Assembly (NCBI GenBank): GCA_002722245.1
Contig: PBLA01000003.1
Coordinates: 23,190 to 87,189, forward strand
Reading direction: 5' to 3'
DNA from: Flavobacteriales bacterium
GTDB lineage: Bacteria > Bacteroidota > Bacteroidia > Flavobacteriales_C > GCA-002722245
DNA length: 64,000 nt
Of the stretch, positions 4,780-60,566 are shown piece by piece. Below the pieces are notes generated by a model. That model ran no database searches. It had not been told where the DNA came from and saw nothing but the letters and a program-made list of their open reading frames with translations. Positions within the stretch are counted from its first letter, which is position 1. Each line of letters opens with the position of its first letter. The translations under genes and the position numbers were made by a program.

Positions 4780-5345
4780 GACTTATAATTTTTAGGTTCA
4801 ACATTTTTTTGAATGACTACTGCTAATTTTTTTGCCCTTTCAATACACTTGTATTTTTGGGTTTTAGCAGCATTTTCTGAACTAAAATTCAAGTCACGAG
4901 CAATTTCTCGCATAGACTTTTTTAAAAAATAGAAATGCTTAAATACAGCTTGGCATTTTTCGCTTAACTGAAGTATTATATTATCTAAATATCCGTATAA
5001 TTTTTCCTCCTCTTGATAGGCTTCTACTTCTTCCTCTGTGTCAATTATATTTTCAACTTTCGACCCAATCTTTTTGCCTCGATCTCTTAATCTTGATCGC
5101 CATAAATTTTTGGCAATTGCATGAACGTATGTATTGGCCTGACAAGTTAATTCAAAGGTTGGTTTCTTTGCCTGCTCATAAAAAATGACCATAGCTTCCT
5201 GAAAAACATCTTTAGCCTCATCTTCATCTCCTGAGTTCTTAATAATATAACTTTTCACCACGGGATAGTACAAATAAATCTCTTCTATGAATTCAGAAGA
5301 ATTTCCTTGTCGGATGGCAGTTAATAATGTGTTGTTATTCATCAC
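4776..5345 (-). CDS. RNA polymerase sigma-70 factor, ECF subfamily
   Basis: 189 aa, with sigma-2 and sigma-4 regions (…FQEAMVIFYEQ…, …MREIARDLNFSSENAAKTQKYKCIERAKKL). Forms an operon with the downstream anti-sigma-like gene. Confidence 0.85.
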   Translation of the reverse strand: MMNNNTLLTAIRQGNSSEFIEEIYLYYPVVKSYIIKNSGDEDEAKDVFQEAMVIFYEQAKKPTFELTCQANTYVHAIAKNLWRSRLRDRGKKIGSKVENIIDTEEEVEAYQEEEKLYGYLDNIILQLSEKCQAVFKHFYFLKKSMREIARDLNFSSENAAKTQKYKCIERAKKLAVVIQKNVEPKNYKS

Positions 5346-5536
5346 TTTACTTTCCCATTAATGCAGAGGATAGCAAAAGTAACCTCTTTTTTTATAAAAA
5401 AATAAATTACTCGATTTAATGTGCTGTATATCAGAAACATAAAAAGTTTGTTCTGCATAAATAGCCACTCTTAATTTCGATACATAATGCCGTAAAACTA
5501 ATTAGTTAACGATAAATAATTCATTATATTAAAGCA

Positions 5537-43975: not shown

Positions 43976-44743
43976 TTACAAATTGAATAATTTTTTAGCA
44001 TTTTCAGTTGTTGCCTCAGCCACAGTTTGAACGGTTTCTCCTTTTACTTGCGATAATTTCTCTGCAATATACATTAGATAGGAAGGCTCATTCCTTTTCC
44101 CTCTCTTTGGGGTAGGTGCTAAGTATGGAGAATCTGTTTCCAGAACCAGTTCATTTAAAGGAACTTGAGCAATTGTTTTATCCAAACCTGATTTTTTATA
44201 GGTTAATACTCCTCCTACACCCATTTTAAATCCTCCGTAGCTCATTATCTTTCGAGCTTCATCGAGGCCACCGGTAAAGCAGTGAAAAACTCCGGTTAAA
44301 GACTCGGTATTTTCCTCGTCAATAATTTGAAAAATTTCTTGAAAGCTCTCTCGTGCGTGAATCGCAATTGGTTTTCCCAATTCTCTTGCCCATTGTATTT
44401 GTTGACGGAATGCATCTTGCTGGATTCCTAAAGTTGTTTTATCCCAATATAAATCAATTCCTATCTCTCCAACAGCGCAATAATTCCGCTTTTTAAACCA
44501 GGTTTTACATGCAGAGAGTTGCTGCAGATAGTCATCCTTAACATAACAAGGATGAACTCCCATCATACTCTTAAAAAAGTCTGGGTTTTCATCCTCCAAC
44601 AAATGCATTCTCTCAATCGATTCAACATCAACATTAGGCATCAAAACTTGCTGTACCCCGTGATTTTTAAACCGATTTATACACTCAACCAGATCCTCAT
44701 TGAATTCCTTTAAGTATAAATGAGCATGGGTATCAATTAGCAT
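43976..44743 (-). CDS. tatD: TatD-family metal-dependent hydrolase/DNase
   Basis: MLIDTHAHL…; conserved His/Asp/Glu metal ligands typical of TatD. Confidence 0.9.
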   Translation of the reverse strand: MLIDTHAHLYLKEFNEDLVECINRFKNHGVQQVLMPNVDVESIERMHLLEDENPDFFKSMMGVHPCYVKDDYLQQLSACKTWFKKRNYCAVGEIGIDLYWDKTTLGIQQDAFRQQIQWARELGKPIAIHARESFQEIFQIIDEENTESLTGVFHCFTGGLDEARKIMSYGGFKMGVGGVLTYKKSGLDKTIAQVPLNELVLETDSPYLAPTPKRGKRNEPSYLMYIAEKLSQVKGETVQTVAEATTENAKKLFNL

Positions 44744-44800: not shown

Positions 44801-47287
44801 TTATTCCTGAAAATAGACTCTTTTCACTCTTGGAGAAATACCCGTTAAAGCCTCATAGGGTATCGTATCCATTAACTTAGCAAATTTTTGGATAGGAAAT
44901 CCTTCACCAAATACAACCACTTCATCACCTTCCTCTGCATCAATATTAGAGATGTCCAGCATACACATATCCATACATACATTACCCACAATAGGAGCTT
45001 TATGACCTTTAATCATCATATATCCCCTTCTCCTTCCTAAACTTCTTCTCAAACCATCTGCATAACCAATTGGAACAGTAGCAATAATAATATCTCGTGT
45101 TGGCATTTCCATTCGTGAATACCCCACAGAGTCATGAGCAGGAATATGCTTAATTTGAGAAATGGTTGTTTTTAACTCTGAAACAGGCTTCAGTTTCGCT
45201 TGATGCTCAGGAAAACTACTTACCCCATACATACCTATCCCCAATCTTACCATGTCAAATTGTGCTTCAGGAAATGCAAGAGCACCCGCTGAATTAACAA
45301 TATGGCGAAAGATTTTTCCGCCTAATATTTCAACAATTTTTTTGCTCATTCGAGCAAATAATTCAATTTGATCATGGGTGAACAATCGATGAATCGGTTC
45401 GTCGGCAGTTGACAAATGACTAAATACACTCTTAACACGAAGAAACTTATGATTTTTAATGTGAATGATTAACTTGTGTAAATCCGTTTCCTCAAAACCC
45501 AATCGGTGCATACCGGTGTCTAACTTTAAATGAATAGGATACCCTTCTGGCTTATTGTAGCCACTGCGCTTTAGTGCTTTAATAAATAAATCAAATACTT
45601 TAAACGAATAGATTTCTGGTTCCAAGTAATTTTGAATCATTAAATCATAAGACTGTTGCTCAGGATTCATAACCATAATAGGCAAAGTAATTCCGGCTCT
45701 CCTCAACTCCACACCCTCATCTGCATAAGCAACTGCTAAATAATCAACACGGTTAAATTGAAGCACATTGGCAATTTCAAAAGAACCACTACCATATGAG
45801 AAGGCTTTTACCATAGCCATTACTTTCGTAGATGCGTTCAATTGGGCTTTAAAATAGTTTAGATTATCAACAATGGCGTTTAAATTAATTTCCAAAACTG
45901 TTTCGTGGACACGCTTTTGAAAAAGTGCACTAATTCGTTCAAATCCAAAAGGCCTAGCTCCCTTTAATAAAATAGTTTCATTTTTAAACTTTGAAAGATC
46001 AATAGATGCAATAAAATCATTTGTTGTAGTAAAAAACTGCGTGTCTTTTGGGAATAAATCTTGTTGGGCGCAGATGTTTTTTCCAATACCGATAATTTTT
46101 TTAACCCCTTTGTTAGCCAACAAGCTAGACACTAACCCATAAAGTTCTTCATCGAGTTTTCCAGATTGTAAAATATCGGATATAATAATCGTTTTATGAA
46201 GATGTTGCTTTTGTTGCTCCATGAAATCTAGAGCGATTTCTAAACTCCCAAAGTCCGAATTGTAATAATCATTAATAATAGAGCAATTGTTTAATCCTTC
46301 TTTGAGCTCTAATCGCATAGCAACAGGAGCTAAGGTCTTCATACGTGAATTAATCCATTCATTATCATATCCTAAATGAAGTAAAACAGCCCAACAACTT
46401 ATGCAGTTTTCAATACTTGCTGTATCATTAAAAGGAATGTGTAACTTTAAAAACTCATTTTTAAACACAGCTTGAACTGTACTATCAACATCCGTTTTAC
46501 TAACTTTCCCAATCATTAAATCTGCAGGGAGTTTTCTACTCCATGTAAAAGTATTAAGGGTTCTATATTTTGCTTTTTTAGTGAGTGAATTGTGAACCGG
46601 AAGAAAATCTCTACAATAAATTAATGATTGTGCATTTTCAAATAATCGCAATTTTTCCTTCGCTTTTTCATCCCAATTTTTAAAATTCTCATCATGGGCT
46701 CCACCAAGGTTTGTTAGCACCCCCAATGTAGGCTGAATCATGAATTCCAATTTCCCCATTTCACCGGGTTGAGAAATCCCCGCCTCGAAAATCCCAAAGT
46801 TGTTTTTCTCCTCTGTTTGCCAAATACTTAACGGTACACCAACTTGAGAATTATAGCTTTTAGGGCTTTTAACAATATTGTATTCCTCCTTTAGCAACTG
46901 ATACAACCATTCTTTCACGATTGTTTTCCCATTACTTCCTGTAATTCCAATCACTGGAAAGTCAAAACGCTTCCGATGATTATGCGCCATCAACTGAAGT
47001 GCAATCAATGTATCTGGCACTTTAATTACCCAAGCATCTTTTAAAAGTGTTAAATTAATCGACTGATCAACTATAAATGTTCTTATTCCTTTTTGATAAA
47101 CCTCCGATAAAAAATCATGTCCATCGTGACGATCACCCTTCACCGCAATAAAAACCGAGCTATCGGTGTTTGCAACTCTCCGGCTATCAATTAAAATAGA
47201 CTGTATAGTTAAATTATTACCTCCTTTCTGGATAACACTTCCATCACAAAGACTAACAAGATCATTTATCACATAGGGTTGACTCAT
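44801..47287 (-). CDS. murF: Bifunctional UDP-MurNAc-tripeptide--D-Ala-D-Ala ligase (MurF) / alanine racemase (Alr) fusion
   Basis: N-terminal Mur ligase P-loop GITGSNGKT. The C-terminal half carries the alanine-racemase PLP motif VMAMVKAFSYGSG and a TIM-barrel-like region. Confidence 0.85.
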   Translation of the reverse strand: MSQPYVINDLVSLCDGSVIQKGGNNLTIQSILIDSRRVANTDSSVFIAVKGDRHDGHDFLSEVYQKGIRTFIVDQSINLTLLKDAWVIKVPDTLIALQLMAHNHRKRFDFPVIGITGSNGKTIVKEWLYQLLKEEYNIVKSPKSYNSQVGVPLSIWQTEEKNNFGIFEAGISQPGEMGKLEFMIQPTLGVLTNLGGAHDENFKNWDEKAKEKLRLFENAQSLIYCRDFLPVHNSLTKKAKYRTLNTFTWSRKLPADLMIGKVSKTDVDSTVQAVFKNEFLKLHIPFNDTASIENCISCWAVLLHLGYDNEWINSRMKTLAPVAMRLELKEGLNNCSIINDYYNSDFGSLEIALDFMEQQKQHLHKTIIISDILQSGKLDEELYGLVSSLLANKGVKKIIGIGKNICAQQDLFPKDTQFFTTTNDFIASIDLSKFKNETILLKGARPFGFERISALFQKRVHETVLEINLNAIVDNLNYFKAQLNASTKVMAMVKAFSYGSGSFEIANVLQFNRVDYLAVAYADEGVELRRAGITLPIMVMNPEQQSYDLMIQNYLEPEIYSFKVFDLFIKALKRSGYNKPEGYPIHLKLDTGMHRLGFEETDLHKLIIHIKNHKFLRVKSVFSHLSTADEPIHRLFTHDQIELFARMSKKIVEILGGKIFRHIVNSAGALAFPEAQFDMVRLGIGMYGVSSFPEHQAKLKPVSELKTTISQIKHIPAHDSVGYSRMEMPTRDIIIATVPIGYADGLRRSLGRRRGYMMIKGHKAPIVGNVCMDMCMLDISNIDAEEGDEVVVFGEGFPIQKFAKLMDTIPYEALTGISPRVKRVYFQE

Positions 47288-47362
47288 ACTTACAAAAGTA
47301 ACATTTTCATTAAGCTAATTTTGAACTCCCTTATACCGCTATTTAAATTAAATTGCACATTT

Positions 47363-48796
47363 TTAATGTAAAGACAAATTAATCTGTTTGATTAACCATT
47401 TTTTATCGGCCAGTTGTTTTTCGGATTCAATTTCCTTAGATAACTCACTTACTTTTACTGTTAGTTCCTCCCTTGAATAATGTACTCTTTTATCAAAAAT
47501 TCTAGATAACTTAAGAATATATTTTAAGAATGAAGTGTAGGAATTTTTTTGAATCTCAGCCAAAGAATCCTCTCTTTTTAAATAGGACTTAAAATTTTTC
47601 ACCGAACTTTCGACCGATAAGGTATCTTTCGTTTCCAAATAAATTTTTATTTGCAAAGATCTATAGGCCAATTGGTAGAAAACATCCTTAAAATTAACAA
47701 AAGTTAAGTTTCTTTGAGCCCCTTTATAATCTCCTTGAGCAAATAATATATTTGCCTGATTATAATTGTATATCATAGATTTGTCTTCACTAGGAATATA
47801 TTGAATATATGAATCAAGAAATTTCTCAGCCCATATGAATTCTTTTGCTCTGATGGCAACTTCAATAATATTCTTATAAGACCGATCATGAACGAAAGAA
47901 TTTACCACCAAAAAATCATTATCTACCTGAAATTTCATGATATTAAATAATTCTTGAATATAATCTTCACCATTGTTAACCTTCTTAATACAATGATTAA
48001 TCGAATGTTGGATGAAATTCGTTATTTCCGATCGCGGAGAAACATCTATATTTTCCTTAATTGAATTTAAAAAAACATTAAACTCTTCTCGCGTAAACTC
48101 TTCTGTAAATAAATCTATCAATCTTAAATAAAGATGAAGAGATGGATACTTGCTAAACTCATTTGGCCTATTTTCAATAAATGCTCTTATCTCATCAAAA
48201 AATGTCTTTTTATATTTAGCACTTATTAATCGCTCTCTGACACTCATTTCAATATAAATTTGTAATTTATTGAAGACATAAAAAGCATCTAATGAGTAAG
48301 ACTTGTCTTGAAGTACTTCTGAATATGGTAAGCTAGTATCCTTATTGTACCCTTTATCTATTTCTACATCTGCCAAAAAATCAAATAATAGTTCTTCATT
48401 TGATTTAATCTTGGATTCATCAATTTGTTTCTTTGTTTCCTTAAAGTGCTTCTGAATTGATTTTCCAGAAATTCTCATATTCAATTCTGACACTTTAATA
48501 TATTGTTTCAAATGAGGTCTGTTTTCTGTGTGAACAGTGATTAGATATTGCTCGGCCAACTTATATAAAGCTGACATATCATTATTTAAATTTTTAGATT
48601 TCGTTACTAATTCCAACTTTTCCTTTTTAATCTTTGAAAAATTAGGATGAACCTTTTCCATTACCCTTACAATATCAACAAAGACTTGATTTTTATTATA
48701 ATAAGGGGACGCTATGAAATCAACAAACTTGGACATCTCCTTTGAGGAAAATGTTTCCAAAAGAACACATAATTTACTTCCAGCAATATCTGACAT
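47363..48796 (-). CDS. Hypothetical cytoplasmic alpha-helical (TPR-like) protein, paralog 1 of a divergent pair
   Basis: 477 aa with no signal peptide. Clear paralogy to 49199..50653 (e.g. DRSYKNIIEVAIRAKEFIWAEKFL…MIYNYNQANILFAQGDY…FYQLAYRSLQIKIY versus DRTIKNIIEVAIRAEKYQWAENFL…MIYNYNFANINFGMNN…FYQLSYRILLIKIY). No family recognised. Confidence 0.7.
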   Translation of the reverse strand: MSDIAGSKLCVLLETFSSKEMSKFVDFIASPYYNKNQVFVDIVRVMEKVHPNFSKIKKEKLELVTKSKNLNNDMSALYKLAEQYLITVHTENRPHLKQYIKVSELNMRISGKSIQKHFKETKKQIDESKIKSNEELLFDFLADVEIDKGYNKDTSLPYSEVLQDKSYSLDAFYVFNKLQIYIEMSVRERLISAKYKKTFFDEIRAFIENRPNEFSKYPSLHLYLRLIDLFTEEFTREEFNVFLNSIKENIDVSPRSEITNFIQHSINHCIKKVNNGEDYIQELFNIMKFQVDNDFLVVNSFVHDRSYKNIIEVAIRAKEFIWAEKFLDSYIQYIPSEDKSMIYNYNQANILFAQGDYKGAQRNLTFVNFKDVFYQLAYRSLQIKIYLETKDTLSVESSVKNFKSYLKREDSLAEIQKNSYTSFLKYILKLSRIFDKRVHYSREELTVKVSELSKEIESEKQLADKKWLIKQINLSLH

Positions 48797-48933
48797 CTAC
48801 AATAGCTAAGTATATCAAAATTAAGATTTTAGTTTTAAACCCTGTATTTCTTAAAAAGAAATATATTTAATCAAAGTAACTAATAAATGAGGTTCTTATT
48901 CTCCGTTATAAGATTACAAATTTAACAAGTAAT

Positions 48934-49130
48934 TTACTGCACAAAAACCCATCCGTAAGCAGTTAAATTTCCAGACTGGAATTCTATAAGATATACCCCC
49001 TTCTCGAATTCAGAAAGGTTCAAAACCTGAGTTGGAGGTTATATAATAATTATGCCAATTTATTTTTTCCAAGATTATAATAATTTCAGGGTCTCCAATA
49101 AATAACATTTGTGTATCTCCTATCACAATC
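48934..49130 (-). pseudogene. Orphan remnant of a T9SS type-A C-terminal sorting domain (3' gene fragment, stop-interrupted)
   Basis: Reverse-strand translation gives PPTQVLNLSEFEKGVYLIEFQSGNLTAYGWVFVQ*, preceded in-frame by a TAA. About 80-85% nucleotide identity to the real 3' end of the FG-GAP cargo gene (54468-54570) and to the fragment at 56772-56880. Confidence 0.55.
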
Positions 49131-49198
49131 ATTTCTTACAAAAAGTATATCAAAATCGAGTAATAAAAGATTTTTTTACATTTTGCTAATTTTATAAG

Positions 49199-50653
49199 AT
49201 GATTGAAAAAGAAATATCCAAAAGTAAATTAGGTGTTTTGCTGAAGGCTTTATCTAAAAAGGAATATAACTCTTTTATTAAATACCTAGATTCCCCATTA
49301 TTTAACAAAAAAAAAGAATTTCACGAAGCAGCTAAGTTTTTATTCAAATTTCACCCCTCGTTTGAAAATAAGGACTTATCGAAAGAATTATTAAAAAAAC
49401 ATCTGAATAAGAGTACAAAAAAACTAAATAATATAAACTCATTAATGAATGGACTCTTGAGGCATGGAGAGGAGTTTCTTGTTCATAATCATGTATCAGA
49501 GTCACAAGGACTAAAGGATTTAATCTTACTATCAGAATTTAATAACAGATCGATTAAAAAAGGTTTTGAAAATCATGTTAAAAGCTCTGATCATAGAATT
49601 GAAAAAATATCTGTTCAATCATTTGATCAAATTCTCAATTCATTCCTTATTGAGCACGAAATCGATGTAGCTTTTTCAAAAGATCAGAGTCTTCCATTTG
49701 ATCAAGCTATCATTTCTAAAACTACACAATTAGATGTATTCTTTTTTTATTGCAAACTAAAAACCTATTGCGAAATAATTTCGCGTTCTCAATTTTTAAA
49801 GGTCAAATATCCTACTGATAATTTTGAAAAAACATTAGAATGGCTAAAAAACTTTCCCGAACTAATAAAAAATCCTTCTATAAAAATATACTTTGGTCTA
49901 GTTCAATTACTGAAAAACTTCGAAAATGATGAGATCTATTCGAAATATATAATCACCCTAAAAGAAGAATACAATAACTTCAATAAAGATGAATGCATAA
50001 ACCTTTTTCAAACCGTATCAAATCATTGTATTAGAAGAATAAACAACGGTTCAAGTCATTACTTAAAAGAACTGTTTAATATTTATGAATTTCAAGCAGA
50101 AAAAGACCTGCTTGTAAAGGAAGGTTTTCTACACGACAGAACAATCAAAAACATTATAGAAGTTGCTATCCGAGCTGAAAAATATCAGTGGGCTGAAAAT
50201 TTTCTTGTGCAACATATTGATTTTGTTGACAAAGATCAAAAAGAGATGATTTACAACTATAATTTTGCAAACATAAATTTTGGTATGAACAATTTAAAAA
50301 CGGCAAAAAAACATTTAGTGTTTGTTAATATAAAAGACCCCTTTTACCAACTATCTTACAGAATCTTACTAATTAAGATATATTATTCAATTAATGACTT
50401 TGAAGCTCTATCTAGTACTATTTCAAATTTCAAAGCATTTTTTAATAGAGAAAAAAACATCTCAGAAATTCAAAAAGCTATTTTCTCAAACTTACTTTTT
50501 TTCATACACAAGTTGGTTTTGTTAAAGGAGAAAAAAAATCATCTTGAAACCAAAAAATTCTCAATTAAAAAAGAAGAGCTTAAGGCCCAAATTAATAGTG
50601 AAAACAAGATAGCCGATAGAGGGTGGTTACTAAATGAATTTGAAAAAGTATAA
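49199..50653 (+). CDS. Hypothetical cytoplasmic alpha-helical (TPR-like) protein, paralog 2 of a divergent pair
   Basis: 484 aa with no signal peptide. N-terminal SKLGVLLKALSKKEYNSFIKYLDSPLFNKKKEF parallels SKLCVLLETFSSKEMSKFVDFIASPYYNKNQVF of paralog 1. The C-terminal helical repeats are also conserved between the two. Confidence 0.7.
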   Translation: MIEKEISKSKLGVLLKALSKKEYNSFIKYLDSPLFNKKKEFHEAAKFLFKFHPSFENKDLSKELLKKHLNKSTKKLNNINSLMNGLLRHGEEFLVHNHVSESQGLKDLILLSEFNNRSIKKGFENHVKSSDHRIEKISVQSFDQILNSFLIEHEIDVAFSKDQSLPFDQAIISKTTQLDVFFFYCKLKTYCEIISRSQFLKVKYPTDNFEKTLEWLKNFPELIKNPSIKIYFGLVQLLKNFENDEIYSKYIITLKEEYNNFNKDECINLFQTVSNHCIRRINNGSSHYLKELFNIYEFQAEKDLLVKEGFLHDRTIKNIIEVAIRAEKYQWAENFLVQHIDFVDKDQKEMIYNYNFANINFGMNNLKTAKKHLVFVNIKDPFYQLSYRILLIKIYYSINDFEALSSTISNFKAFFNREKNISEIQKAIFSNLLFFIHKLVLLKEKKNHLETKKFSIKKEELKAQINSENKIADRGWLLNEFEKV

Positions 50654-50795
50654 TTTAAGGTAATATTTTTTTTGATAATACTCCTTTCGAAGAAGTATTT
50701 AATTCAAAACTTAAGCTGAAATTGTCATTGAAAATGGTCTTTGAATTGAATTAGGAGAATTCCATTATTACTAAAAAAATGTATTTATTTACATA

Positions 50796-50830
50796 AAAAA
50801 GCCGAGGTAAAATTGGCCTCGGCTTTTATT
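50796..50830. terminator. Bidirectional rho-independent terminator between convergent genes
   Basis: AAAAAAGCCGAGGtaaaattgGCCTCGGCTTTTATT. Confidence 0.65.
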
Positions 50831-50844
50831 AAGTTTTTCAAATT

Positions 50845-53800
50845 TTATTTTTTAATAAAGGAAATTGTCTCAACTTTAGCATCTCCAGAAACAACTATTG
50901 AATAATAACCTGATACTAGGCCAGAAACATCAATTTTTGATTTCCCTATTACCATATCCATCTCTTGAGATAAAACTATTTGTCCATGCGCATTAAACAC
51001 CTGAAGCTTCATTCCCTCTGATTGCTCATTATCCGAAAATAAAGACACATTTAACTCGTTTTCAGCAGGATTTGGATAGACTTCTAACATACTGCTCTCA
51101 ATAGACTTAACAGCCGTTCCTTCTTCATATACTGGATCTAAAATTTCAGCATATGAAATGACTTCTGTGTCAAACGATCTCGGAGTAAACATAGGATTAT
51201 TCTCATCGTCATCACACGTCAAGTTAGTATTTAGTTGCATTTGCTGATTAAACCCGTTTAATTGCGCAGCACACGAGGCAGTTGAATGATACTGGAAATT
51301 TTGAGTGATGTTTACCGTATTAAACGTAAAAGTATTTACTCCAAAGTTATTAGCCATGTTCATGGTTCCGCTAATACAAAATACATCAATTGCTGTGTTT
51401 GAATTACTCCAGAAGGTATTTAAACCTGGCGAAATTGCGGTTCCAAAATCAATGTTTTGTGAATTATTTACATATAAACCAGCATTTGAATAGTTATAAA
51501 GGAAGTTATTTCTGACAGAACCTCCTGAATTTCTGAATAAATATATTGGATTGCTAGAATCGTATATACAGTTTGAATGAATGTTACACCCATTTCCATC
51601 TCTAATAAACATTCCTACTCCGCTTCTAGCTGTTCTTCCGTTAAATTTGTTCATATCAATCTTATTGCACATAACATTCAAATCACTTCTTCTAGAAAAA
51701 ATCCCATAAAGCTCATTGTTTAACAAATCATTACTTGTAATTTGACCTGTACTATTAATTGTACTGATTCCTGTATTAAATCCAGAAATTTCATTTTCTT
51801 TTACTTTAAAGTTATTACTATTCCATAATGAAACAGCAGGAATTCGAACTGTATTACCTCTGTTAAGTATGCCGTTTGATATGGTATTATTTAACATCCA
51901 AACTTGGTTTCCACCACGAATTGAAATCTGAATATCAAAATTAAATGCTCCATTATTGGATAAACCGTTACTTACAGAAATAGTATTTGCTTCAATGTTT
52001 AAAGGATAAACTGATCGTCTACCAAGATTAGCCTCTATGGATGTTGAATTTCCAGAAAAATTATTTTGAGAAATTGTAGCTCCAGAAGCATTCATTTTAA
52101 TTCCGTGAAATTGTATTGATGTATTTGAGGAATATGATACAAAGTCGTTTTGACTAATACCTCCTGAGATCTCTGAACGAGAAATGTTAACTCCACTTGG
52201 TTCATTGTTGTTGATTGATACTTGACGTCCACAATCCTCATATAAAGGAAAGTCTGTATCTACCTTAAACTCATTCCCCGTAATACTTCTTGCAAAGTCT
52301 GTTCTGGAATCGACATTTACACCATACAAACAATTCTCGAATAAGTTGTTTGTTACCGAACCTTCTGTACTTTGAAAATCTAACGCCATAGTTGCATTGA
52401 TAAACGTACTGGAATTTACATCAACAGTATTTACGTTGTTAAAAACCAAACCATGCCAGGTATTAACCAAGTCGCATGGTCTAAAAACAGAGTTGTTTGC
52501 TTTTAACGTTGCACCGTTGTTAAATACAATTGCGGCACATTTTCCAAACACAACATCAACGTTTGTAATGTCTAATTCAGCAGCATCCACTGTAACAGTT
52601 ATATTGTCTCCGATCAAAATTTTACCCTCCCAAACTGTACCACTGGATATTATTTGATCCGCCAAAATCTGCTGTAATTCATTAATATTTGCTGATTGCA
52701 ACAAGCAGCAATTATTTGATTCTTCAACCTCAATAGTAGCAATATCCTGACATCCATTAATATATGTTACTACAGATTGATACGAGCCCGTCTCATCAAT
52801 TTCTAACGTATTACCACCAATTTCAATGAGTTGTCCATCTAAAAACCACTCATATGTTTGCACTAAATGGTTTATATTAACGTCAAGCCCTGAAATTATG
52901 GCATGAGCTTCTACCGCTAATTCAGCTGTTTCTCCGGGACAAATTGACTCCTCTGTACTCGTTAATATTGTATTCAATGCAGATTCACTAGTAAAATTAG
53001 GAAGACCAAAACCTCGTGTTGCAGTATTTGTATTTTGAAAAACATTTGGATTATAATTTGGATTAGCGCTACCCGTATTAGTTATTCTACCAACTGTTTG
53101 AGAGGCAGCGGCTACCCATCCCGCATTACTAACATGATAAATATTTCCATCCACACCAGTTTGAAGTCCACCGCCAAGATCGTTCCAACCGGATCCTTGA
53201 CCTGACCACCATATTCGGCTAATAGAATTGTTATTGTTTAGGTCAATTTGGTACAACTCACTCGGGCCATAACACCCATAGTATAAATATTGTCCATTTA
53301 TAGAGTATTCCAAATCAACTACGGCTGAAGTTGCTCCAGGGAAAGTTGTTGCTCCAATTGTATTACCAACTCCATTAAATGTACCTGTTTGCGTATTAAA
53401 TGTCTCCATCATAATAATGCTTGATCTAGGAGCTGCTGTGAAAACCGACCATGCTACTTCTACATTTATATTATCATTTAGTCTTGTTGCAGAATATGTA
53501 GGGTTTAAAACCGCATTATTAGGAACGTTTCCTATGTTAAACTGATTAGAATATTGTATTCCGTTTGAACTAATTTTATATACTGCAAAGGTTGATGCAT
53601 TATCAACAACTTTCGTAATTAACCAGTATTCAAAAGGGTTTGTAAGATTTGGAATGGCTATAATACCTTCTTGTACATTAACTCCAGATAAAGGATTATT
53701 TAATGTTGGTAAAGCCCCATTAAATTGAGAAAAAACACCTGTTGCAGCATCATAAACGTGAACTAATAAATCTCTACCGTTACCATTATTTGTTGGATCC

Positions 53801-54195
53801 GAAAAAATATAATATTGATCACTACAATTAATAACAGGAACAACTGTAACTGCTGTTGACGAGGAAGGATCTGCTCCTAAAGGTTCAATATTTGGCGTAT
53901 TAAGATTTGGATCAACCCTTTGATGGTTTGAGTTATACAAATTAATCCCATCTGTGTAAAATAATAAGTCACCAGTATTTGGGTCGGATACAACTGTAAT
54001 ACCTTCAGTACTATTTAAAGCACCAGCATTCGGACCAGCTCCTACTAATGCTCCGATATTACCAGTATTATCAATTGAAAATTCAGAGGGGTCAGCACCG
54101 CTTCCGAATATCCAGTTCGTTCGCTCTAATTGGGCTTTACCTGTTAACCAGGAGAGTAATATTAAAGCTGCGATAAAAGTGTATTGTTTTTTCAT
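50845..54195 (-). CDS. Secreted 1116-aa protein with N-terminal beta-propeller-like region, right-handed parallel beta-helix (PbH1-like) repeats and T9SS type-A CTD
   Basis: Signal peptide MKKQYTFIAALILLSWLTGKAQ. Asn/Gly-rich beta-helix-like repeats (…NNTISNGILNRGNTVRI…NNFKVKENEISGFNTGIS…). C-terminal VYPNPAENELNVS…GYYSIVVSGDAKVETISFIKK. Confidence 0.75.
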   Translation of the reverse strand: MKKQYTFIAALILLSWLTGKAQLERTNWIFGSGADPSEFSIDNTGNIGALVGAGPNAGALNSTEGITVVSDPNTGDLLFYTDGINLYNSNHQRVDPNLNTPNIEPLGADPSSSTAVTVVPVINCSDQYYIFSDPTNNGNGRDLLVHVYDAATGVFSQFNGALPTLNNPLSGVNVQEGIIAIPNLTNPFEYWLITKVVDNASTFAVYKISSNGIQYSNQFNIGNVPNNAVLNPTYSATRLNDNINVEVAWSVFTAAPRSSIIMMETFNTQTGTFNGVGNTIGATTFPGATSAVVDLEYSINGQYLYYGCYGPSELYQIDLNNNNSISRIWWSGQGSGWNDLGGGLQTGVDGNIYHVSNAGWVAAASQTVGRITNTGSANPNYNPNVFQNTNTATRGFGLPNFTSESALNTILTSTEESICPGETAELAVEAHAIISGLDVNINHLVQTYEWFLDGQLIEIGGNTLEIDETGSYQSVVTYINGCQDIATIEVEESNNCCLLQSANINELQQILADQIISSGTVWEGKILIGDNITVTVDAAELDITNVDVVFGKCAAIVFNNGATLKANNSVFRPCDLVNTWHGLVFNNVNTVDVNSSTFINATMALDFQSTEGSVTNNLFENCLYGVNVDSRTDFARSITGNEFKVDTDFPLYEDCGRQVSINNNEPSGVNISRSEISGGISQNDFVSYSSNTSIQFHGIKMNASGATISQNNFSGNSTSIEANLGRRSVYPLNIEANTISVSNGLSNNGAFNFDIQISIRGGNQVWMLNNTISNGILNRGNTVRIPAVSLWNSNNFKVKENEISGFNTGISTINSTGQITSNDLLNNELYGIFSRRSDLNVMCNKIDMNKFNGRTARSGVGMFIRDGNGCNIHSNCIYDSSNPIYLFRNSGGSVRNNFLYNYSNAGLYVNNSQNIDFGTAISPGLNTFWSNSNTAIDVFCISGTMNMANNFGVNTFTFNTVNITQNFQYHSTASCAAQLNGFNQQMQLNTNLTCDDDENNPMFTPRSFDTEVISYAEILDPVYEEGTAVKSIESSMLEVYPNPAENELNVSLFSDNEQSEGMKLQVFNAHGQIVLSQEMDMVIGKSKIDVSGLVSGYYSIVVSGDAKVETISFIKK

Positions 54196-54467
54196 AACCT
54201 TCTTTTATTTTAAATTTTAATTGTAAAACAGGACTCAAAAGTAGATAGGTAGAGCCTTAAAAGTTTCGGTATTTTTTTTACATAATTTTAGAAAACCGAA
54301 CAAAAAAAATACGTAAATACCTGTAAAACAAGTACTTATCTGTGTTATAAGTTTAAAAAAAGAATCAAATTGAATGTGATAAAAAACCTAGTATTTAAGG
54401 TTTAACACTTTGAATTAATAAAAAGGGATTAGGAATTATTAGAAATAACTTTATTAACCTATAGTCT

Positions 54468-56738
54468 TTAATTAACAAAAACCCTTTCGTAAGTGATTAA
54501 GTTTCCGGACTGAAATTCTATGACATACACTCCTTTCTCAAAACTAGAAAGATTCAACACTTCATGTTGAGCAGGAGTAAGCAACTGATTAATTACTCTT
54601 CCCGACAAGTCCATAATCCTAATTTTATCAAGTTGCAACTTAGAATCTATATTAAATACCCCTGAGTTAGGATTAGGATATACCTTTAATCCTTTTTCAA
54701 GCAAATTTATATTGTGATCTTCTTTATTTAAAACAACAATAGGGTCTCCATAAACAACATTTGGTAATATCGTATCACCTTCATAGCTTACAATAATTAG
54801 GTCCGTTAATCTAATATCAAAATCTTTTACAATCTCTCCTAAGTTATCTGGAATAACGATTATACCTGTGGCTAAGTATCCCTGACCAGTTCTATTAATT
54901 TGGTCTGTTCTTGACATCCCAATATCAATTCCGTCGGTTAGTGGAAAACCATCAGCAATCATATCAACATTTTTTGTACCTAACCAACTGCCATTAAAAT
55001 TGGATGAGTTATCACTTCCAAAAACTTCTTCAAGGTCATGCTGCCATTTCATACTCAAACCATATACATTTTCAGCAGGTGTCACCGAGTCCCCTAAATA
55101 AATTTGGTAAACAATAGAGTCTGAACTTGACACTGTATCTGTTTTTGATGAAATGTAAAGAGGTGGACCAAAAGGATTTGTAGGTACGTTTTTATCCACT
55201 TTAAAAGAAACTTGCGAATAGTTTTGACGAACAGCTAATACATCATCAAAATCTATTTTTCCATCTCCATCTGTATCCGCATGTTTCAAATCAACTTCAT
55301 AATGTTTATTCCCCCAATCATCGCAGGTTTGATCTGTCCATGAGATAAGAGGTAATATTCTTCTTATACCATCAGAAACTCCAATACCTGCACCAATATT
55401 AATATAATCAGAGCTATTAACTTTACCATCATTATTTGCATCGCCAGGCCAAACACAATCATCCTCTATACATTTTCTGGGTTTCAATGTTATAAAATGA
55501 ATTGCTCCTCCTAAATATGCAGAGTCAGACCTCCATGATTCTCCAACAGCTACTTCAGGATAGCCGTCTGAATTTATATCTCCTACATGATATATCAGAC
55601 TGCCAAACTGTTGCTCTGGAAGATAATCCAATCCAGAAACCGTATTTCTATTTATTAACTCATACGCGGTAACATCACCTGATGAATCTAAAAAAAACAC
55701 ATAGGCCTCTCCATAATTATCAGGTGAAAATCCTTTATATGCAGTAACTAAAAGCTCATTTAGCCCATCAAAATTCAAATCAGGAAGAGATCTTAAAACT
55801 CTTCCAAAAGCAGAGCCGCTAACACTTAACCCACCAACAACAGGGTGAGAATTATCAATTCGTTTTGATGATTTCACCGAACCATCTGTATTTAATAAAA
55901 CAATCCAAAATCGATCTCCTTTTGTACCAGCGACTATGTCAGTCATTCCGTTCCCATCAATATCGCCTATATTTGCTAATCCATCACCAAATCCAGCATT
56001 TGGATATTTAATACCGGGAAAGTCCTCAAATGTTGGTAAAATCTTTTTGTAACCCTTTACTGTACCATTGGAATTTAAGTACAAAATATAGATTACTCCC
56101 ATATCAGCACCCACATCATGTGCTTCAAAAGCAGAGACAAAAACATCGGTATTTCCGTCATTGTCTAAGTCTCCTGCGGCAGAAACTTCCATTCCAAATT
56201 TATCGCCTAATGTAATATCTAAAATTGAGTTGTTTTGAGATATCTTAACATCATCCTTAACCGTTCCATCAGTATTCAAAAACAAGATATAAACCGCACC
56301 AGAATATAATCCAAAACCATTATCGTCCTGAGGCGCACCTACGACGACATCCATATTCCCATCTCCATCTAAATCACCTAATGTGTCAACTGATATTCCA
56401 AATGCAGCCTGCCTATGGATCAAACCTGAAAAACCACCTTTTCCTTCCCCAATAAATTGATAGGATTTAAATGTTCCATCAGAATTCATGAACGCAACAA
56501 CTAACTCACCCCGAGTAGTATGACCTAAGCCTGGTCCGGCAATAACCAAATCATTTATCCCATCCTTATCTAAATCACCTATTACTGTTGCTCCATGCAA
56601 ATAGGCGCTGTCCTCTTTAGGAATAAGTAACTCTTCGTTATTCAATTGAAAAGTTTTTAATAATTCAAAACTAAGTTGCTGACTGAATACAAAATTGGAA
56701 AACAGTATTAAAACTAATGATATATGTAATTTGTTCAT
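54468..56738 (-). CDS. Secreted FG-GAP (integrin-alpha-like beta-propeller) repeat protein with dockerin/EF-hand-like Ca-binding loops and T9SS type-A CTD
   Basis: Repeated GDLDKDGINDLVIAG / GDLDGDGNMDVVVGA / GDLDNDGNTDVFVSA / GDIDGNGMTDIVAG / GDINSDGYPEVAVGE motifs; DANNDGKVNSSD and DTDGDGKIDFDD loops. C-terminal KVYPNPNSGVFNI…GVYVIEFQSGNLITYERVFVN. Confidence 0.75.
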   Translation of the reverse strand: MNKLHISLVLILFSNFVFSQQLSFELLKTFQLNNEELLIPKEDSAYLHGATVIGDLDKDGINDLVIAGPGLGHTTRGELVVAFMNSDGTFKSYQFIGEGKGGFSGLIHRQAAFGISVDTLGDLDGDGNMDVVVGAPQDDNGFGLYSGAVYILFLNTDGTVKDDVKISQNNSILDITLGDKFGMEVSAAGDLDNDGNTDVFVSAFEAHDVGADMGVIYILYLNSNGTVKGYKKILPTFEDFPGIKYPNAGFGDGLANIGDIDGNGMTDIVAGTKGDRFWIVLLNTDGSVKSSKRIDNSHPVVGGLSVSGSAFGRVLRSLPDLNFDGLNELLVTAYKGFSPDNYGEAYVFFLDSSGDVTAYELINRNTVSGLDYLPEQQFGSLIYHVGDINSDGYPEVAVGESWRSDSAYLGGAIHFITLKPRKCIEDDCVWPGDANNDGKVNSSDYINIGAGIGVSDGIRRILPLISWTDQTCDDWGNKHYEVDLKHADTDGDGKIDFDDVLAVRQNYSQVSFKVDKNVPTNPFGPPLYISSKTDTVSSSDSIVYQIYLGDSVTPAENVYGLSMKWQHDLEEVFGSDNSSNFNGSWLGTKNVDMIADGFPLTDGIDIGMSRTDQINRTGQGYLATGIIVIPDNLGEIVKDFDIRLTDLIIVSYEGDTILPNVVYGDPIVVLNKEDHNINLLEKGLKVYPNPNSGVFNIDSKLQLDKIRIMDLSGRVINQLLTPAQHEVLNLSSFEKGVYVIEFQSGNLITYERVFVN

Positions 56739-56771
56739 GTGCTAAAAAGACCTAATAAATAAAATTATCTA

Positions 56772-56990
56772 TTATTTAACAAAAACCCTTTCGTAAGCAG
56801 TTAAATTCCCGGACTGGAATTCTTAATAATATACCCCTTTCTCAAAACTTTATAATTCAAATCCTGCCCAATTAGTAAAGTGGGTAAAACATGATTAAAA
56901 GAAAAACCAACATTATGTAATTCCTGTAATTAGTAACTGAATTTATTCAACATTTTTTATGCCTTATGAAAGAAACATTAATAAAAATTA
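56772..56990 (-). pseudogene. Orphan, degenerated remnant of a T9SS type-A CTD (3' gene fragment with in-frame stop)
   Basis: Reverse-strand translation gives …DLNYKVLRKGVYY*EFQSGNLTAYERVFVK*. The first ~100 nt are ~80-85% identical to 54477-54570 and 48941-49037. Further upstream, similarity to the CTD-coding region of the FG-GAP gene is decayed but recognisable. Confidence 0.55.
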
Positions 56991-56993
56991 TTC

Positions 56994-57030
56994 AAGAAAC
57001 AAAAAAGCCGGCAAGTTATGCTTACCGGCT
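56994..57030 (-). terminator. Rho-independent terminator of the sdh operon
   Basis: Minus-strand AGCCGGTAAGcataaCTTGCCGGCTTTTTTTGTTTCTTG, immediately 3' of the sdhB stop. Confidence 0.6.
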
Positions 57031-57049
57031 ACAACTTATTTAGTAAATA

Positions 57050-57805
57050 TTATTTATCCTTTGATAACACGGAAGCGCTCAAAAAGTCTCTATTCATTCG
57101 AGCTATATTGTCTAAAGAAATTCCTTTAGGACATTCCACCTCACACGCACCGGTATTGGTACAGTTACCGAAACCTTCTGTGTCCATTTGATCAACCATA
57201 TTCAATACTCTTCGATCTTTTTCTACCTGACCTTGAGGCAATAATGAAAATTGCGAAACCTTCGCGGAAACGAATAACATAGCAGATCCATTCTTACATG
57301 TAGCAACGCATGCTCCGCAACCTATACAAGTTGCTGCGTCAAAAGCCTTATCGGCATCTACTTTAGGGATTGGAATAGCATTAGCGTCTTGCGTATTTCC
57401 GGAAGTATTTACCGAAACATATCCTCCTGCTTGCTGAATTCTATCAAACGCACTTCTATCAACCACTAAATCTTTCACCACAGGAAATCCTGCCGATCGA
57501 AATGGCTCAATGGTAATGGTGTCGCCATCTTTAAACATTCGCATATGAAGTTGACACGTCGTTACTTTACGATCGGGTCCATGCGCCTCACCATTTATAT
57601 ACAATGAACACATTCCGCAAATTCCTTCTCTACAATCGTGGTCAAAGGCAACTGGCTCAATGTCATTGTTAATTAATTGTTCATTTAAGATATCCATCAT
57701 CTCTAAAAAAGAAGAATCAGGGCTTATATCTTTTACGTTATAAGTTTCAACTTTTCCTTTTGCTTTGGCATTTTGCTGACGCCAAACTTTTAAAGTTAAA
57801 TTCAT
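57050..57805 (-). CDS. sdhB: Succinate dehydrogenase / fumarate reductase iron-sulfur subunit
   Basis: [2Fe-2S] [10 protein letters not shown], [4Fe-4S] [11 protein letters not shown], [3Fe-4S] [12 protein letters not shown] cysteine clusters. Confidence 0.9.
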
Positions 57806-57850
57806 GTCTTTACGTTTTTATGTTGCATATTTAAAAGCAACTGTTCACTA

Positions 57851-59866
57851 CTACTTGTAAGATCTTTGTTTTAATTCGATGTCATTAAATTCTAATTGCT
57901 CTTTATGCAAAACAGCATCGCTTGGTTCTCCTTTATATTCCCAAGCAGCAACATACCTAAAGTTTACATCGTCTCTTAACGCCTCACCATCTTGCTCGCC
58001 TCCAACTTCAACCGATTCTTCTCGGAAATGTCCTCCGCACGATTCGTTTCTGTGTAAAGCATCTTTTGCAAATAATTCACCCAATTCTAAGAAATCGGCC
58101 ACTCTTCCAGCTTTTTCTAATTCAGGATTCAATCCGTTTGCAACACCAGGAACTTTCACTTCTTTCCAAAATTCCTCTCTTATCTGTTTAATTTCGTCGA
58201 TTGCCTCTTTGAGACCTTGTTCGTTTCTAGACATCCCAACTTTGTTCCACATAACATTTCCTAAACGTTTGTGGAAATGGTCAACAGATTTAGACCCCTT
58301 GTTATTAATAAAGAAATCTAGTCGCTCCTTAACCTCTTTCTCAGCATCATCGAATTCTGTTGTATCAGTTGGAATTTCACCTGTTCGAATATCCTTTGAT
58401 AAGAAATCTCCAATGGTATACGGCAATACGAAGTATCCATCCGCTAGTCCCTGCATTAATGCTGAAGCACCAAGTCGGTTTGCACCATGCTCTGAAAAGT
58501 TCGCTTCACCAGCTGCATAACAACCCGGTACCGTTGTCATTAAATTGTAATCTACCCAGATACCTCCCATTGTGTAATGAACGGCAGGATAAATTTTCAT
58601 TGGTGTTTTGTAAGGATTCTCATCAGCGATTTTTTCGTACATCTGAAATAAGTTTCCGTACTTAGCCTCCACTACTTTAGTTCCAAGATCATTGACTAAT
58701 TTTTTATCATTAGCATCCAATCCTTTAATATTTGCCTCTGTTTTCCCATAACGTTCAATAGCTGAAGCAAAATCTAAATACACTGCTTCACCTGTTTGGT
58801 TAACACCAAAACCAGCATCACATCGCTCTTTTGCAGCTCTGGATGCTACATCACGTGGTACAAGGTTTCCAAAAGCAGGATATCTTCTTTCGAGGTAGTA
58901 ATCTCTATCTTCTTCTTTAATTTGAGTAGGCTTTAGTTTACCTTCTCTAATGGCCTGTGCATCTTCTAGCTTTCCTGGCACCCATATCCTACCATCATTT
59001 CTTAATGATTCAGACATTAAAGTTAACTTCGCTTGATCCTCACCAGAACGAGGAATACAAGTAGGGTGAATTTGTGTGTAACAAGGGTTCGCAAAAAAGG
59101 CGCCTCTTTTGTGCGCTTTCCATGCTGCGGATACATTTGAACCCATAGCATTGGTGGACAGGAAAAATACATTTCCATACCCCCCAGTACAAAGCACTAC
59201 AGCATGTGCAGAGTGTCTTTCTATCTCGCCTGTAACAAGATTTCGAGCAATAATTCCTCTTGCCTCGCCATTAATCTTGACCAAATCCATCATTTCATGA
59301 CGGTTGTACATTTTGATTTTCCCCTTATTGATTTGGCGATTCATTGCAGAATAAGCGCCTAACAAAAGCTGCTGTCCTGTTTGACCTTTCGCATAAAATG
59401 TACGGGACACTAATACCCCTCCAAATGAACGGTTATCCAACAAGCCACCGTAATCTCTGGCAAAAGGAACACCTTGCGCTACACATTGATCAATAATGTT
59501 CGCTGAAACCTCAGCTAATCGATATACATTAGCTTCTCGTGCTCTATAATCGCCTCCTTTCACGGTATCATAAAACAGTCGATAAACTGAATCTCCATCA
59601 TTTTGATAGTTTTTCGCCGCATTGATTCCTCCTTGTGCAGCAATAGAGTGCGCACGCCGAGGAGAATCCTGATAACAAAAAGCTTTAACATTGTAACCCA
59701 TCTCAGCTAATGAAGCAGCAGCAGAACCTCCTGCTAAACCTGTACCCACAACAATTACATCAATTAATCTTTTGTTCGCAGGGTTTACAACATTGATTTT
59801 ATTTTTATGATTGGTCCATTTATCTTTAATTGGACCTTCTGGTATGTTTGATTTTAATACTGACAT
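57851..59866 (-). CDS. sdhA: Succinate dehydrogenase / fumarate reductase flavoprotein subunit
   Basis: FAD-binding [17 protein letters not shown]; covalent-FAD His region [14 protein letters not shown]; active-site …HYTMGGI…. Confidence 0.9.
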
Positions 59867-59882
59867 AACACGTAATATATAT

Positions 59883-60566
59883 TTAGTGGGTTAGTACATG
59901 AAACCATGCAATAACTATAAATAATAAAGGAACAAATACCGAATAAGCCTTTCCAAACTTTTCCAACCCCGGTGTATATTTTTTATCTCTAAAACCAACG
60001 GATTGGAATGTAGAGGCAAAACCATGTGCCAAGTGAAGCCCCAAGAAAATAAATGCTAAGGTGTAAACTCCTGCATTAATGGGATTACCCATAGTATGAT
60101 GTAATTCTTCCCAATACCTGAATTCTCCATTAGGTAATTTTCCTGACCAATCTCCTTTGAAAAATTTCGTGGCAATTTCATTGGCCCAAAACTGGATCAT
60201 ATGCACCACTAGGAAAAAGAAAATCATTAGTCCTGTGATAATCATATTTCTCGATACCCAAGAGGAATTGGCTGCTTGATTATCTGCCAAATAAGCCACT
60301 GGTCTTGCTTTTTTATTTTTTACAGTTAAAATAAGACCCATAGCATAGTGTACTAATATACCCGCAATTAAAATGGGTTGAGCGATGAACTGTACAATTG
60401 GGTTCGTTCCCATAAATTGGGATGCTTCATTAAATGCTTCCGGATTAATCACGGACAAAAAGTTAATGATAAGGTGTTGTAAGAGGAAAACCAATAGAAA
60501 CAATCCAGAGAGAGCCATGATGACTTTTCTACCGATTGATGTTTTCCCTAATCCTGATTTACTCAT
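59883..60566 (-). CDS. sdhC: Succinate dehydrogenase cytochrome b subunit (Bacteroidota b558-type membrane anchor)
   Basis: 227 aa with five predicted TM helices and conserved His; first gene of the sdhCAB operon. Confidence 0.75.

Follow-up and report, generated by a model that had tools for sequence, protein, structure and literature searches.

A gene remnant between two divergent paralogues

The 402-bp spacer (48797..49198) between two divergent paralogous genes in a Flavobacteriales bacterium (contig PBLA01000003.1, assembly GCA_002722245.1) contains what is left of a third gene, here called relic B. The window, i.e. the whole stretch that was analysed, is 64,000 nucleotides long. Paralog-1 (477 residues; 47363..48796, minus strand) lies on one side of the spacer and paralog-2 (484 residues; 49199..50653, plus strand), which is divergent from it and inverted in the local gene array, on the other. 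Relic B is very probably a non-functional pseudogene scar that encodes nothing, the 3' end of a gene for an FG-GAP protein secreted by a type IX secretion system (T9SS). A preliminary description of the sequence had proposed an orphan fragment of a T9SS C-terminal domain (CTD) at this place. This is borne out: the fragment corresponds to the last beta-strands of a type A CTD, is non-coding, and is paralogous both to the tail of the FG-GAP gene nearby and to a fragment at 56.8 kb.

The tail of relic B (48934..49038, minus strand) is recognised as derived from a type A T9SS CTD by homology and by a partial match to PF18962. Read on the minus strand from 49038 to 48934, it gives PPTQVLNLSEFEKGVYLIEFQSGNLTAYGWVFVQ-stop, that is 34 codons and a TAA (CCT CCA ACT CAG GTT TTG ... 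GTG CAG TAA), and another in-frame TAA stands directly 5' of it (49041..49039, minus strand). The translation and the upstream stop quoted in the preliminary description are exact on direct reading. The frame has no ATG or GTG start, its sole candidate being the alternative TTG at the sixth codon. The stop lies 137 nt upstream of the paralog-1 ATG at 48796, close to the ~135 bp given earlier.

When the spacer is compared by blastn with the whole window, it matches 56866..56779 (80.2% over 91 bp, E 2.9e-17), in the 56.8 kb fragment or relic A, and 54560..54467 (76.6% over 94 bp, E 4.3e-15), in the intact CTD tail (54468..54571, minus strand, homologous to relic B by alignment) of a gene for a 756-residue FG-GAP/T9SS protein. 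A second collinear block aside, unrelated matches all have E >= 0.16. Over 98-104 aligned bases, the relic B tail is 74% identical to the FG-GAP tail and 79% to that of relic A; overall, identities amount to 74-77% for the former, 79-80% for the latter and 81% (84/104) for the intact tail of the related contig L022, which is the closest of all and has the VFVQ-stop ending and some downstream flank in common with relic B. The pairwise alignment proposed as a check in the preliminary description, once run, places the similarity far above chance but at 74-80%, below the ~85% claimed there for both tails. Nor does the similarity extend past the stop codon as had been supposed. The string cited for this, AACAAAAACCC, represents on the plus strand GGGTTTTTGTT, which encodes (R)VFV ahead of the stop; relic B itself has CACAAAAACCC there. 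3' of the stop, the three CTD-tail copies of the window have little in common.

The relic B peptide matches positions 46-67 of the 75 in PF18962 (Por_Secre_tail) with E 0.005 and 17.6 bits. This is below the family cutoff of 27 bits, as it should be when a mere third of the domain is left; intact neighbouring CTDs score 42-47 bits. Comparison with bona fide CTD genes (those of the window FG-GAP protein, L022, L028 and L029) confirms the homology, at 74-81% DNA identity and with E values down to 3e-17. The tail does not, however, sit at the C-terminus of a complete open reading frame (ORF) with a signal peptide and a passenger domain.

Former coding sequence reaches well beyond the tail. A second block (49075..49174, minus strand) aligns to 54828..54728 of the FG-GAP gene (residues 637-671, just ahead of the CTD), with 71/102 identical positions and a local score of 36, against 12.6 +/- 1.6 (maximum 18) in 500 shuffles. 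It matches ...KDFDIRLTDLIIVSYEGDTILPNVVYGDPIVVLNK of the intact gene, and its own frame reads ...GDTQMLFIGDPEIIIILEKINWHNYYITSNSG where the intact counterpart has ...GDTILPNVVYGDPIVVLNKEDHNINLLEKGLKVYPNPNSG. A deletion junction is placed at 49024..49029 (minus strand) by alignment to the FG-GAP gene and to contigs L019 and L021. Here ...YYITSNSG, which corresponds to the ...VYPNPNSG of the CTD start, continues as VLNLSEFEKG in the +1 frame, and ~111 bp are absent relative to the FG-GAP gene, namely the first two thirds of the CTD. Also absent are the 5' ~1.9 kb of the former gene. Thus the spacer is largely ex-coding sequence, which begins 25 bp from the paralog-2 ATG, where the upstream block stops, and extends down to 48934. 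The preliminary description had given the extent as 48934..49130; a fragment is indeed present there, and the remnant runs on to 49174. That relic B reaches to 25 bp from paralog-2, and that it is one scar among several in a strain-variable islet, are points absent from the earlier account.

Relic B is a disabled homologue, with its 5' truncation at paralog-2, its ~111-bp frame-shifting deletion and its in-frame stop. At the same position, relatives carry a gene that is intact or near-intact (L001, L022, L029).

The islet between sdhB and murF-alr

Haplotype comparison delimits a strain-variable islet at 47303..57049. In the window, its order is relic A, FG-GAP gene, a second CTD gene, paralog-2, relic B, paralog-1. 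Upstream of it lie sdhC, sdhA and sdhB (60566..57050, minus strand), and the 311-bp spacer after sdhB holds relic A. The FG-GAP protein of 756 residues, with a Por_Secre_tail CTD, is encoded at 56738..54468 (minus strand), and a protein of 1116 residues with a different CTD at 54195..50845 (minus strand). The right-hand flank is conserved and consists of a murF-alr fusion (828 residues; 44801..47287, minus strand), in which Mur ligase and alanine racemase domains share one ORF that NCBI annotates as a bifunctional enzyme; it is followed by tatD (44743..43976, minus strand).

The two paralogues are 37% identical and belong to a small family with members seen in uncultured marine Flavobacteriales only. 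They match no Pfam or NCBIfam family above its curated cutoff (there is only a sub-threshold Sds3 match), and a sequence search of the PDB gives nothing below E 0.09. The AlphaFold model of paralog-1 (pLDDT 83.7) predicts an all-helical, TPR-like solenoid, for which Foldseek returns generic matches only (E >= 0.03). Members of this family adjoin FG-GAP/CTD genes for T9SS cargo even at 46% identity (L017, L025, L026), which hints at a functional link.

Relatives and haplotypes

The genomic contexts of relatives (contigs with L numbers) were obtained by exact-protein look-ups and one metagenome scan. A contig search with a single protein gave no match, and a profile search gave only two relatives of 46% identity, in which the upstream gene is different.

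In L001, whose paralog-1 is 77% identical to that of the window, a gene for a 993-residue FG-GAP/LamG/CTD protein stops 39 bp before paralog-1. In L022 and L029 (paralog-1 52-54% identical), FG-GAP tails reading ...FEKGVYLIEFQSGNLTAYERVFVQ-stop and ...SGNLTTRERVFVK-stop, respectively, end ~87-90 bp before the paralog-1 orthologue. The order in L029 is sdhA, sdhB, a 560-bp relic, the FG gene, paralog-1, murF/alr and tatD. Its FG-GAP/CTD gene is cut by two in-frame stops (3601-4056, 4057-4830, 4831-5910) and is otherwise 82.6% identical to the window gene; the stops may reflect a very recent pseudogene or a sequencing error.

Other relatives carry relics of their own. L019 and L021 (paralog-1 79% identical as protein, 75.7% as DNA) have a divergent paralog-2 and the same truncation against it as the window, and their ~540-560-bp spacer retains a decayed first half of the CTD (LNPNS...LDKIRI...) with many stops and indels. 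In L028, paralog-2 is 94.7% identical at the DNA level; it adjoins a relic (NPVVILNREGQEITFREKDLYFIEFQSGSLTAYERVFVK-stop) whose internal deletion is another one and keeps the frame, after which come two intact array genes. Lastly, L020 has a 156-bp relic (211..366) of an L001-type tail (...IKIQSGIYMYKQSVVLK) between an intact, unrelated CTD gene and paralog-1, with 114/156 positions identical (73%) and a score of 72 against 12 +/- 1.6 in shuffles. It looks like an independent replacement that has again spared the tail of the old gene.

Three haplotypes, H0, H1 and H2, occur between sdhB and murF-alr; they hold 0, 1 and 5 genes, respectively, within flanks that are 97-99% identical. H2 is the five-gene arrangement of the window and is found in at least 15 contigs. 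In H1 (two contigs, L003 and L015), what follows the sdhB terminator is ~55 bp, then a degenerate relic with 70% identity to relic B, then paralog-1. H0 (six contigs, L031-L036) has only 168-169 bp, comprising ~60 bp of the H1 relic and then a jump to ~45 bp before the murF-alr ATG. Nested deletions are visible here, H0 keeping ~60 bp of the H1 relic, and paralog-1 is dispensable since H0 strains have lost it.

The four H2 contigs that were compared with the window (L004-L007, of the at least 15 with the same proteins) are 100% identical to it over 11 kb (47000..58000). They come from different samples (Tara Oceans runs ERR599160 and ERR594347; SRR7617333; ERZ27286487). Because the arrangement is identical in contigs from separate samples, it is not an assembly artefact, and this identity points to a very clonal, widely distributed population. 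Relative to L003, in contrast, identity per 40 nt is high (95-100%) outside the limits of 48852, on the downstream side, and ~57071, towards sdhB, and 50-75% between them (60-70% over the relic B tail). The proteins encoded by paralog-1 in L003 and L015 are 99-100% identical to that of the window, while their version of the relic is only 60-70% identical, and identity to both contigs climbs to 95-100% only downstream of ~48852-48868. A 17-bp palindrome, ATTTCTTTTTAAGAAAT (48852..48868, minus strand), stands exactly where identity to L003 passes from ~70% to 100%, ~30 nt upstream of a conserved promoter box of paralog-1 (see below); it may be bound by a regulator or mark where recombination stopped.

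A second relic in the window

Relic A (56775..56906, minus strand) consists of a signal-peptide 5' end joined out of frame to a CTD tail. It reads ...LLIGQDLNYKVL (the signal peptide) and then, out of frame, SFEKGVYY-stop-EFQSGNLTAYERVFVK-stop. The 5' part (56906..56844) is 88% identical to the start of geneY in L028 and 84% to the gene start in L001. The join falls at GTTTTGA, a string common to both parents, where it occurs in AA(A/G)GTTTTGA close to the N-terminus and, within the tail, in TAGTTTTGAG. We infer that relic A arose by a microhomology-mediated deletion of the whole gene body between its conserved ends. Together, relic A, the FG-GAP gene and relic B present three homologous CTD tails in direct orientation within 8 kb, and these sequences are evidence of at least three former or present members of the array.

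Origin and decay of relic B

These observations are best explained by a T9SS FG-GAP gene that formerly lay just upstream of paralog-1 and was transcribed in its direction. Between sdhCAB and murF-alr there is very probably a variable array of FG-GAP/CTD cargo genes whose ends (signal peptide at 5', CTD tail at 3') are conserved, and in which deletion and recombination among array members repeatedly destroy genes while end-pieces stay. The first loss in relic B would have been that of the 5' ~1.9 kb, where it borders on the inverted paralog-2, and the second that of ~111 bp of the CTD by a frame-shifting deletion. It would persist as a spacer which at most lends AT-rich upstream DNA passively, paralog-2 being a more plausible recipient than paralog-1.

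The two parts of the remnant may differ in age. The block beside paralog-2 is old, being common to L019, L021 and L028. In the last 31 codons, the tail differs from the intact L022 tail at 15 positions, distributed 1/2/12 over the three codon positions, with three amino-acid changes, two of which fall inside the otherwise invariant YERVFV motif (YGWVFV in relic B). The 1/2/12 pattern suggests that the tail, unlike the paralog-2-side block, was under coding constraint until relatively recently. Signs of relaxed constraint also exist, namely the 50-75% identity of the relic zone between strains whose flanks are 95-100% identical (per 40 nt) and the stops and indels of the L019 and L021 copies; the H2 contigs, being identical, show no polymorphism that would weigh either way. 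The simplest reading of the ~111-bp gap, as likely as the frame-shifting deletion above, would be a larger deletion whose ends brought an old relic together with the tail of a gene that had stayed intact for longer; the precursor would have resembled L028, with a tail that abuts paralog-1. It is also possible that a small plain deletion, or gene conversion of the tail, made the junction. A recent origin of L003 by recombination of the tail at 56.8 kb with that at 48.9 kb was considered and rejected, its relic being diverged from all window copies.

Does the remnant serve the flanking genes?

Bacteroidota promoters, as known from studies of Bacteroides and Flavobacterium, have the consensus -33 TTTG / -7 TAnnTTTG with a usual spacer of ~19 nt. 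A candidate -7 box of this type for paralog-1, TAATTTTG (48816..48823, minus strand), lies 27 nt before the ATG at 48796. It occupies the same position in the window, L003, L015, L019 and L021, and is the sole conserved box of the Bacteroidota type. Its place is ~110 bp downstream of relic B, within the flank that is 100% conserved. A scan for sigma-70 promoters (12 hits against 3.9 expected) was left unused, as that consensus is uninformative for Bacteroidota and readily matched by AT-rich DNA.

Several observations nonetheless weigh against taking relic B for a mere scar. A CTD tail, whether intact or relic, abuts paralog-1 in the haplotypes with at least 75% paralog-1 identity, and also in some of the ~52-54% relatives (L022, L029), as far as the upstream region was readable. 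This recurrence could reflect selection to keep that DNA. In L001 and L020, a -7-like box is found 4-12 nt after the CTD stop, so that the -33 region overlaps the last codons. The box being so near the stop, the ancestral promoter probably overlapped the gene end, which may be why deletions often spare the tail. The end of relic B is likewise straddled by a -7-like box, TAAATTTG (48924..48917), located after the stop, and a TTTG that lies 17 nt upstream of it, within the final codons of the relic. A regulatory contribution by relic B is possible. Moreover, deletion and insertion are both conceivable as events behind a junction that may be older or younger, and the L003-type relic is too diverged to tell whether it has the relic B junction in common.

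Along these lines, the tail could have been co-opted as the promoter or 5' untranslated region (UTR) of paralog-1, as the preliminary description had suggested, with the -33 element in the old CTD end, the -7 box past the stop, and loss of the tail selected against. In L001 and L020, where only 39 bp separate the CTD stop from the ATG and the -7-like boxes TAATTTAG and TAAATTAG, respectively, stand 27 nt before it, the promoter must reach into the CTD tail unless the two genes are transcribed together; and a CTD tail has been kept in the window, L003, L015, L019, L020 and L021. However, L003 and L015 have lost the box at the end of relic B (they read TCAAATTTAC) despite their 99-100% identical paralog-1 protein, and the box conserved in all five window-like haplotypes sits 100 bp further downstream. 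Its 17-nt spacer is also shorter than usual. Relic B lies in a zone of 60-75% identity, with 30-40% divergence between strains whose paralog-1 is near-identical, whereas the proximal 70 bp are 100% identical. Finally, H0 strains delete the remaining relic along with paralog-1, so nothing there is essential. We therefore find such co-option very improbable, and a promoter or 5'-UTR role for relic B in paralog-1 expression is not supported by these comparisons.

The case of paralog-2 is somewhat different. Except for the nearest ~24 bp, the ~125 bp before its ATG are relic B, on the opposite strand, with relic sequence at -25 to -124 (49174..49075), and the plus strand of the upstream block might have been exapted as its promoter region. 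This stretch is 65-78% identical to L021 per 40 nt and belongs to blast blocks of 88-93% identity with L019 and L021 that reach 49099, where similarity collapses; a -7-like TAATTTTA is present 14 nt before the ATG. On the other hand, the plus strand between the two genes lacks an exact TAnnTTTG, and the high identity of the block may reflect only a recent common recombination tract. In L028, similarity ends 18 bp upstream of the ATG although paralog-2 is 94.7% identical, so the upstream block is not needed in the same form. Exaptation is accordingly a tentative and somewhat doubtful proposal; a passive supply of AT-rich promoter DNA for paralog-2 would be plausible.

Could the fragment itself encode a small functional peptide, either a CTD-only peptide or the 40-residue ORF MIVIGDTQMLFIGDPEIIIILEKINWHNYYITSNSGFEPF-stop (49010..49132, minus strand)? 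The latter is called in metagenome annotations and corresponds to the decayed upstream frame of relic B, while the tail frame is open for 34 codons with coding-like substitutions. Yet the tail frame lacks ATG or GTG and has an upstream stop, and T9SS targeting is impossible as there is no signal peptide. As for the 40-residue ORF, it is not conserved in L019 and L021 (in L019 its frame stops after 7 codons), it has no match in Pfam, and NCBI apparently calls no gene there, since accessions MBL55784-55789 leave no slot. This ORF is probably spurious, and the chance that either peptide functions is next to nil.

Several other kinds of element were sought and rejected. An Rfam scan of 48500..49500 at E <= 1 yields only a sub-threshold RAGATH-30 inside paralog-2. 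The minimum free energies of folding are unexceptional (z -0.70 for relic B, +0.58 for the spacer from relic to ATG), and the single terminator-like match (49018..48998) is the hairpin in the LSEFEKG codons, without a T run. An operator-like palindrome, TTCCAGNCTGGAA (48969..48981), has six sites with up to two mismatches, against 2.7 expected, and 7/100 shuffles equal this number; the best three sites are the CTD tails themselves.

Gene ends as possible recombination handles

A further possibility is that the three CTD tails and the signal-peptide starts act as homology handles for the gain, loss and exchange of cargo cassettes, with relic B being both by-product and substrate. The tails are direct repeats within 8 kb, gene ends are 80-88% identical while the bodies range from 28% (amino acid) to 75% (DNA), and relic A is joined at the GTTTTGA microhomology. 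Identity to the window is also discordant along single contigs. In L021 (1..928 against 1344..2800), paralog-2 is 93% and paralog-1 75.7% identical; in L029 (3650..5906 against its flanks), the figure is 82.6% for the FG gene, against 76% for sdhAB and 72.7% for murF-alr. Identity breakpoints fall in or beside relic B. These discordant identities suggest that islet genes have been exchanged between lineages.

Against a role of the ends as handles, tails that are 74-80% identical over ~95 bp are a poor substrate for RecA-type recombination, and protein function by itself would keep the ends conserved. Nor can L003 be derived from the window by simple recombination of tail with tail, as its relic is diverged from all three copies, and annotation of the window proteins reveals no recombinase or mobile-element gene in the islet. 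We regard this role as unlikely. The broader model, in which the sdhB-murF/alr interval is a hotspot where co-occurring marine Flavobacteriales swap T9SS cargo via gene-end handles, without a dedicated recombinase, and orphan tails are displaced ends, seems decidedly unlikely as well; the evidence for it consists only of the discordant identities (83-95% for island genes against 72-76% for flanks) and the breakpoints in or beside the relics.

With relic B as a pseudogene scar, neither it nor the 40-residue ORF should be annotated as a gene. Relics A and B mark variation in T9SS cargo at one fixed site in uncultured, globally sampled marine Flavobacteriales. Cargo genes would be lost there by deletions that leave conserved ends, and haplotypes with 0, 1 and 5 genes occur side by side, with flanks that are 97-99% identical. 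If it were true that the conserved ends promote cassette exchange, this would provide streamlined marine bacteria with a simple route of surface-protein diversification.

Comparison with known systems

The type A T9SS CTDs (PF18962 / TIGR04183) are the obvious reference. The 34 residues of relic B correspond to the last third of this domain and are 77-90% identical at the amino-acid level to the intact FG-GAP cargo tails of the window, L022, L028 and L029. In contrast to family members, relic B has one third of the domain only, lacks a signal peptide and a passenger, is preceded by a stop and a frameshift, and scores 17.6 bits against a cutoff of 27. It is what survives of a type A CTD gene and does not itself belong to the family.

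The polymorphic toxin loci of Rhs and CdiA, with their orphan C-terminal modules, offer a looser analogy, a resemblance only, which draws in part on a preprint (bioRxiv 10.1101/2025.05.08.652813) and in part on general background. In those systems, recombination in a conserved region leaves startless pieces beside an intact paralogue, a variable cassette is bounded by conserved sequence, and the orphans record past replacements. The polarity is reversed, however: here the export tag is conserved and kept, and the passenger is variable. The islet has no toxin or immunity gene, and there is no evidence that its orphans are reused. The gene downstream of relic B is TPR-like, without toxin or immunity domains, and is also present where the relic is absent.

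The closest parallel is with the pseudogene scars found in flexible islets of free-living marine bacteria. Like these, relic B is a short end-piece at a fixed site between housekeeping genes, where flanks of 97-99% identity enclose 0, 1 or 5 genes and deletions are nested. There is no essential difference, except that here every scar is a conserved end of a T9SS cargo gene, with three tails in direct orientation. Relic B is a gene scar of the kind typical for flexible genomic islets, an ordinary one and very probably not a working element.

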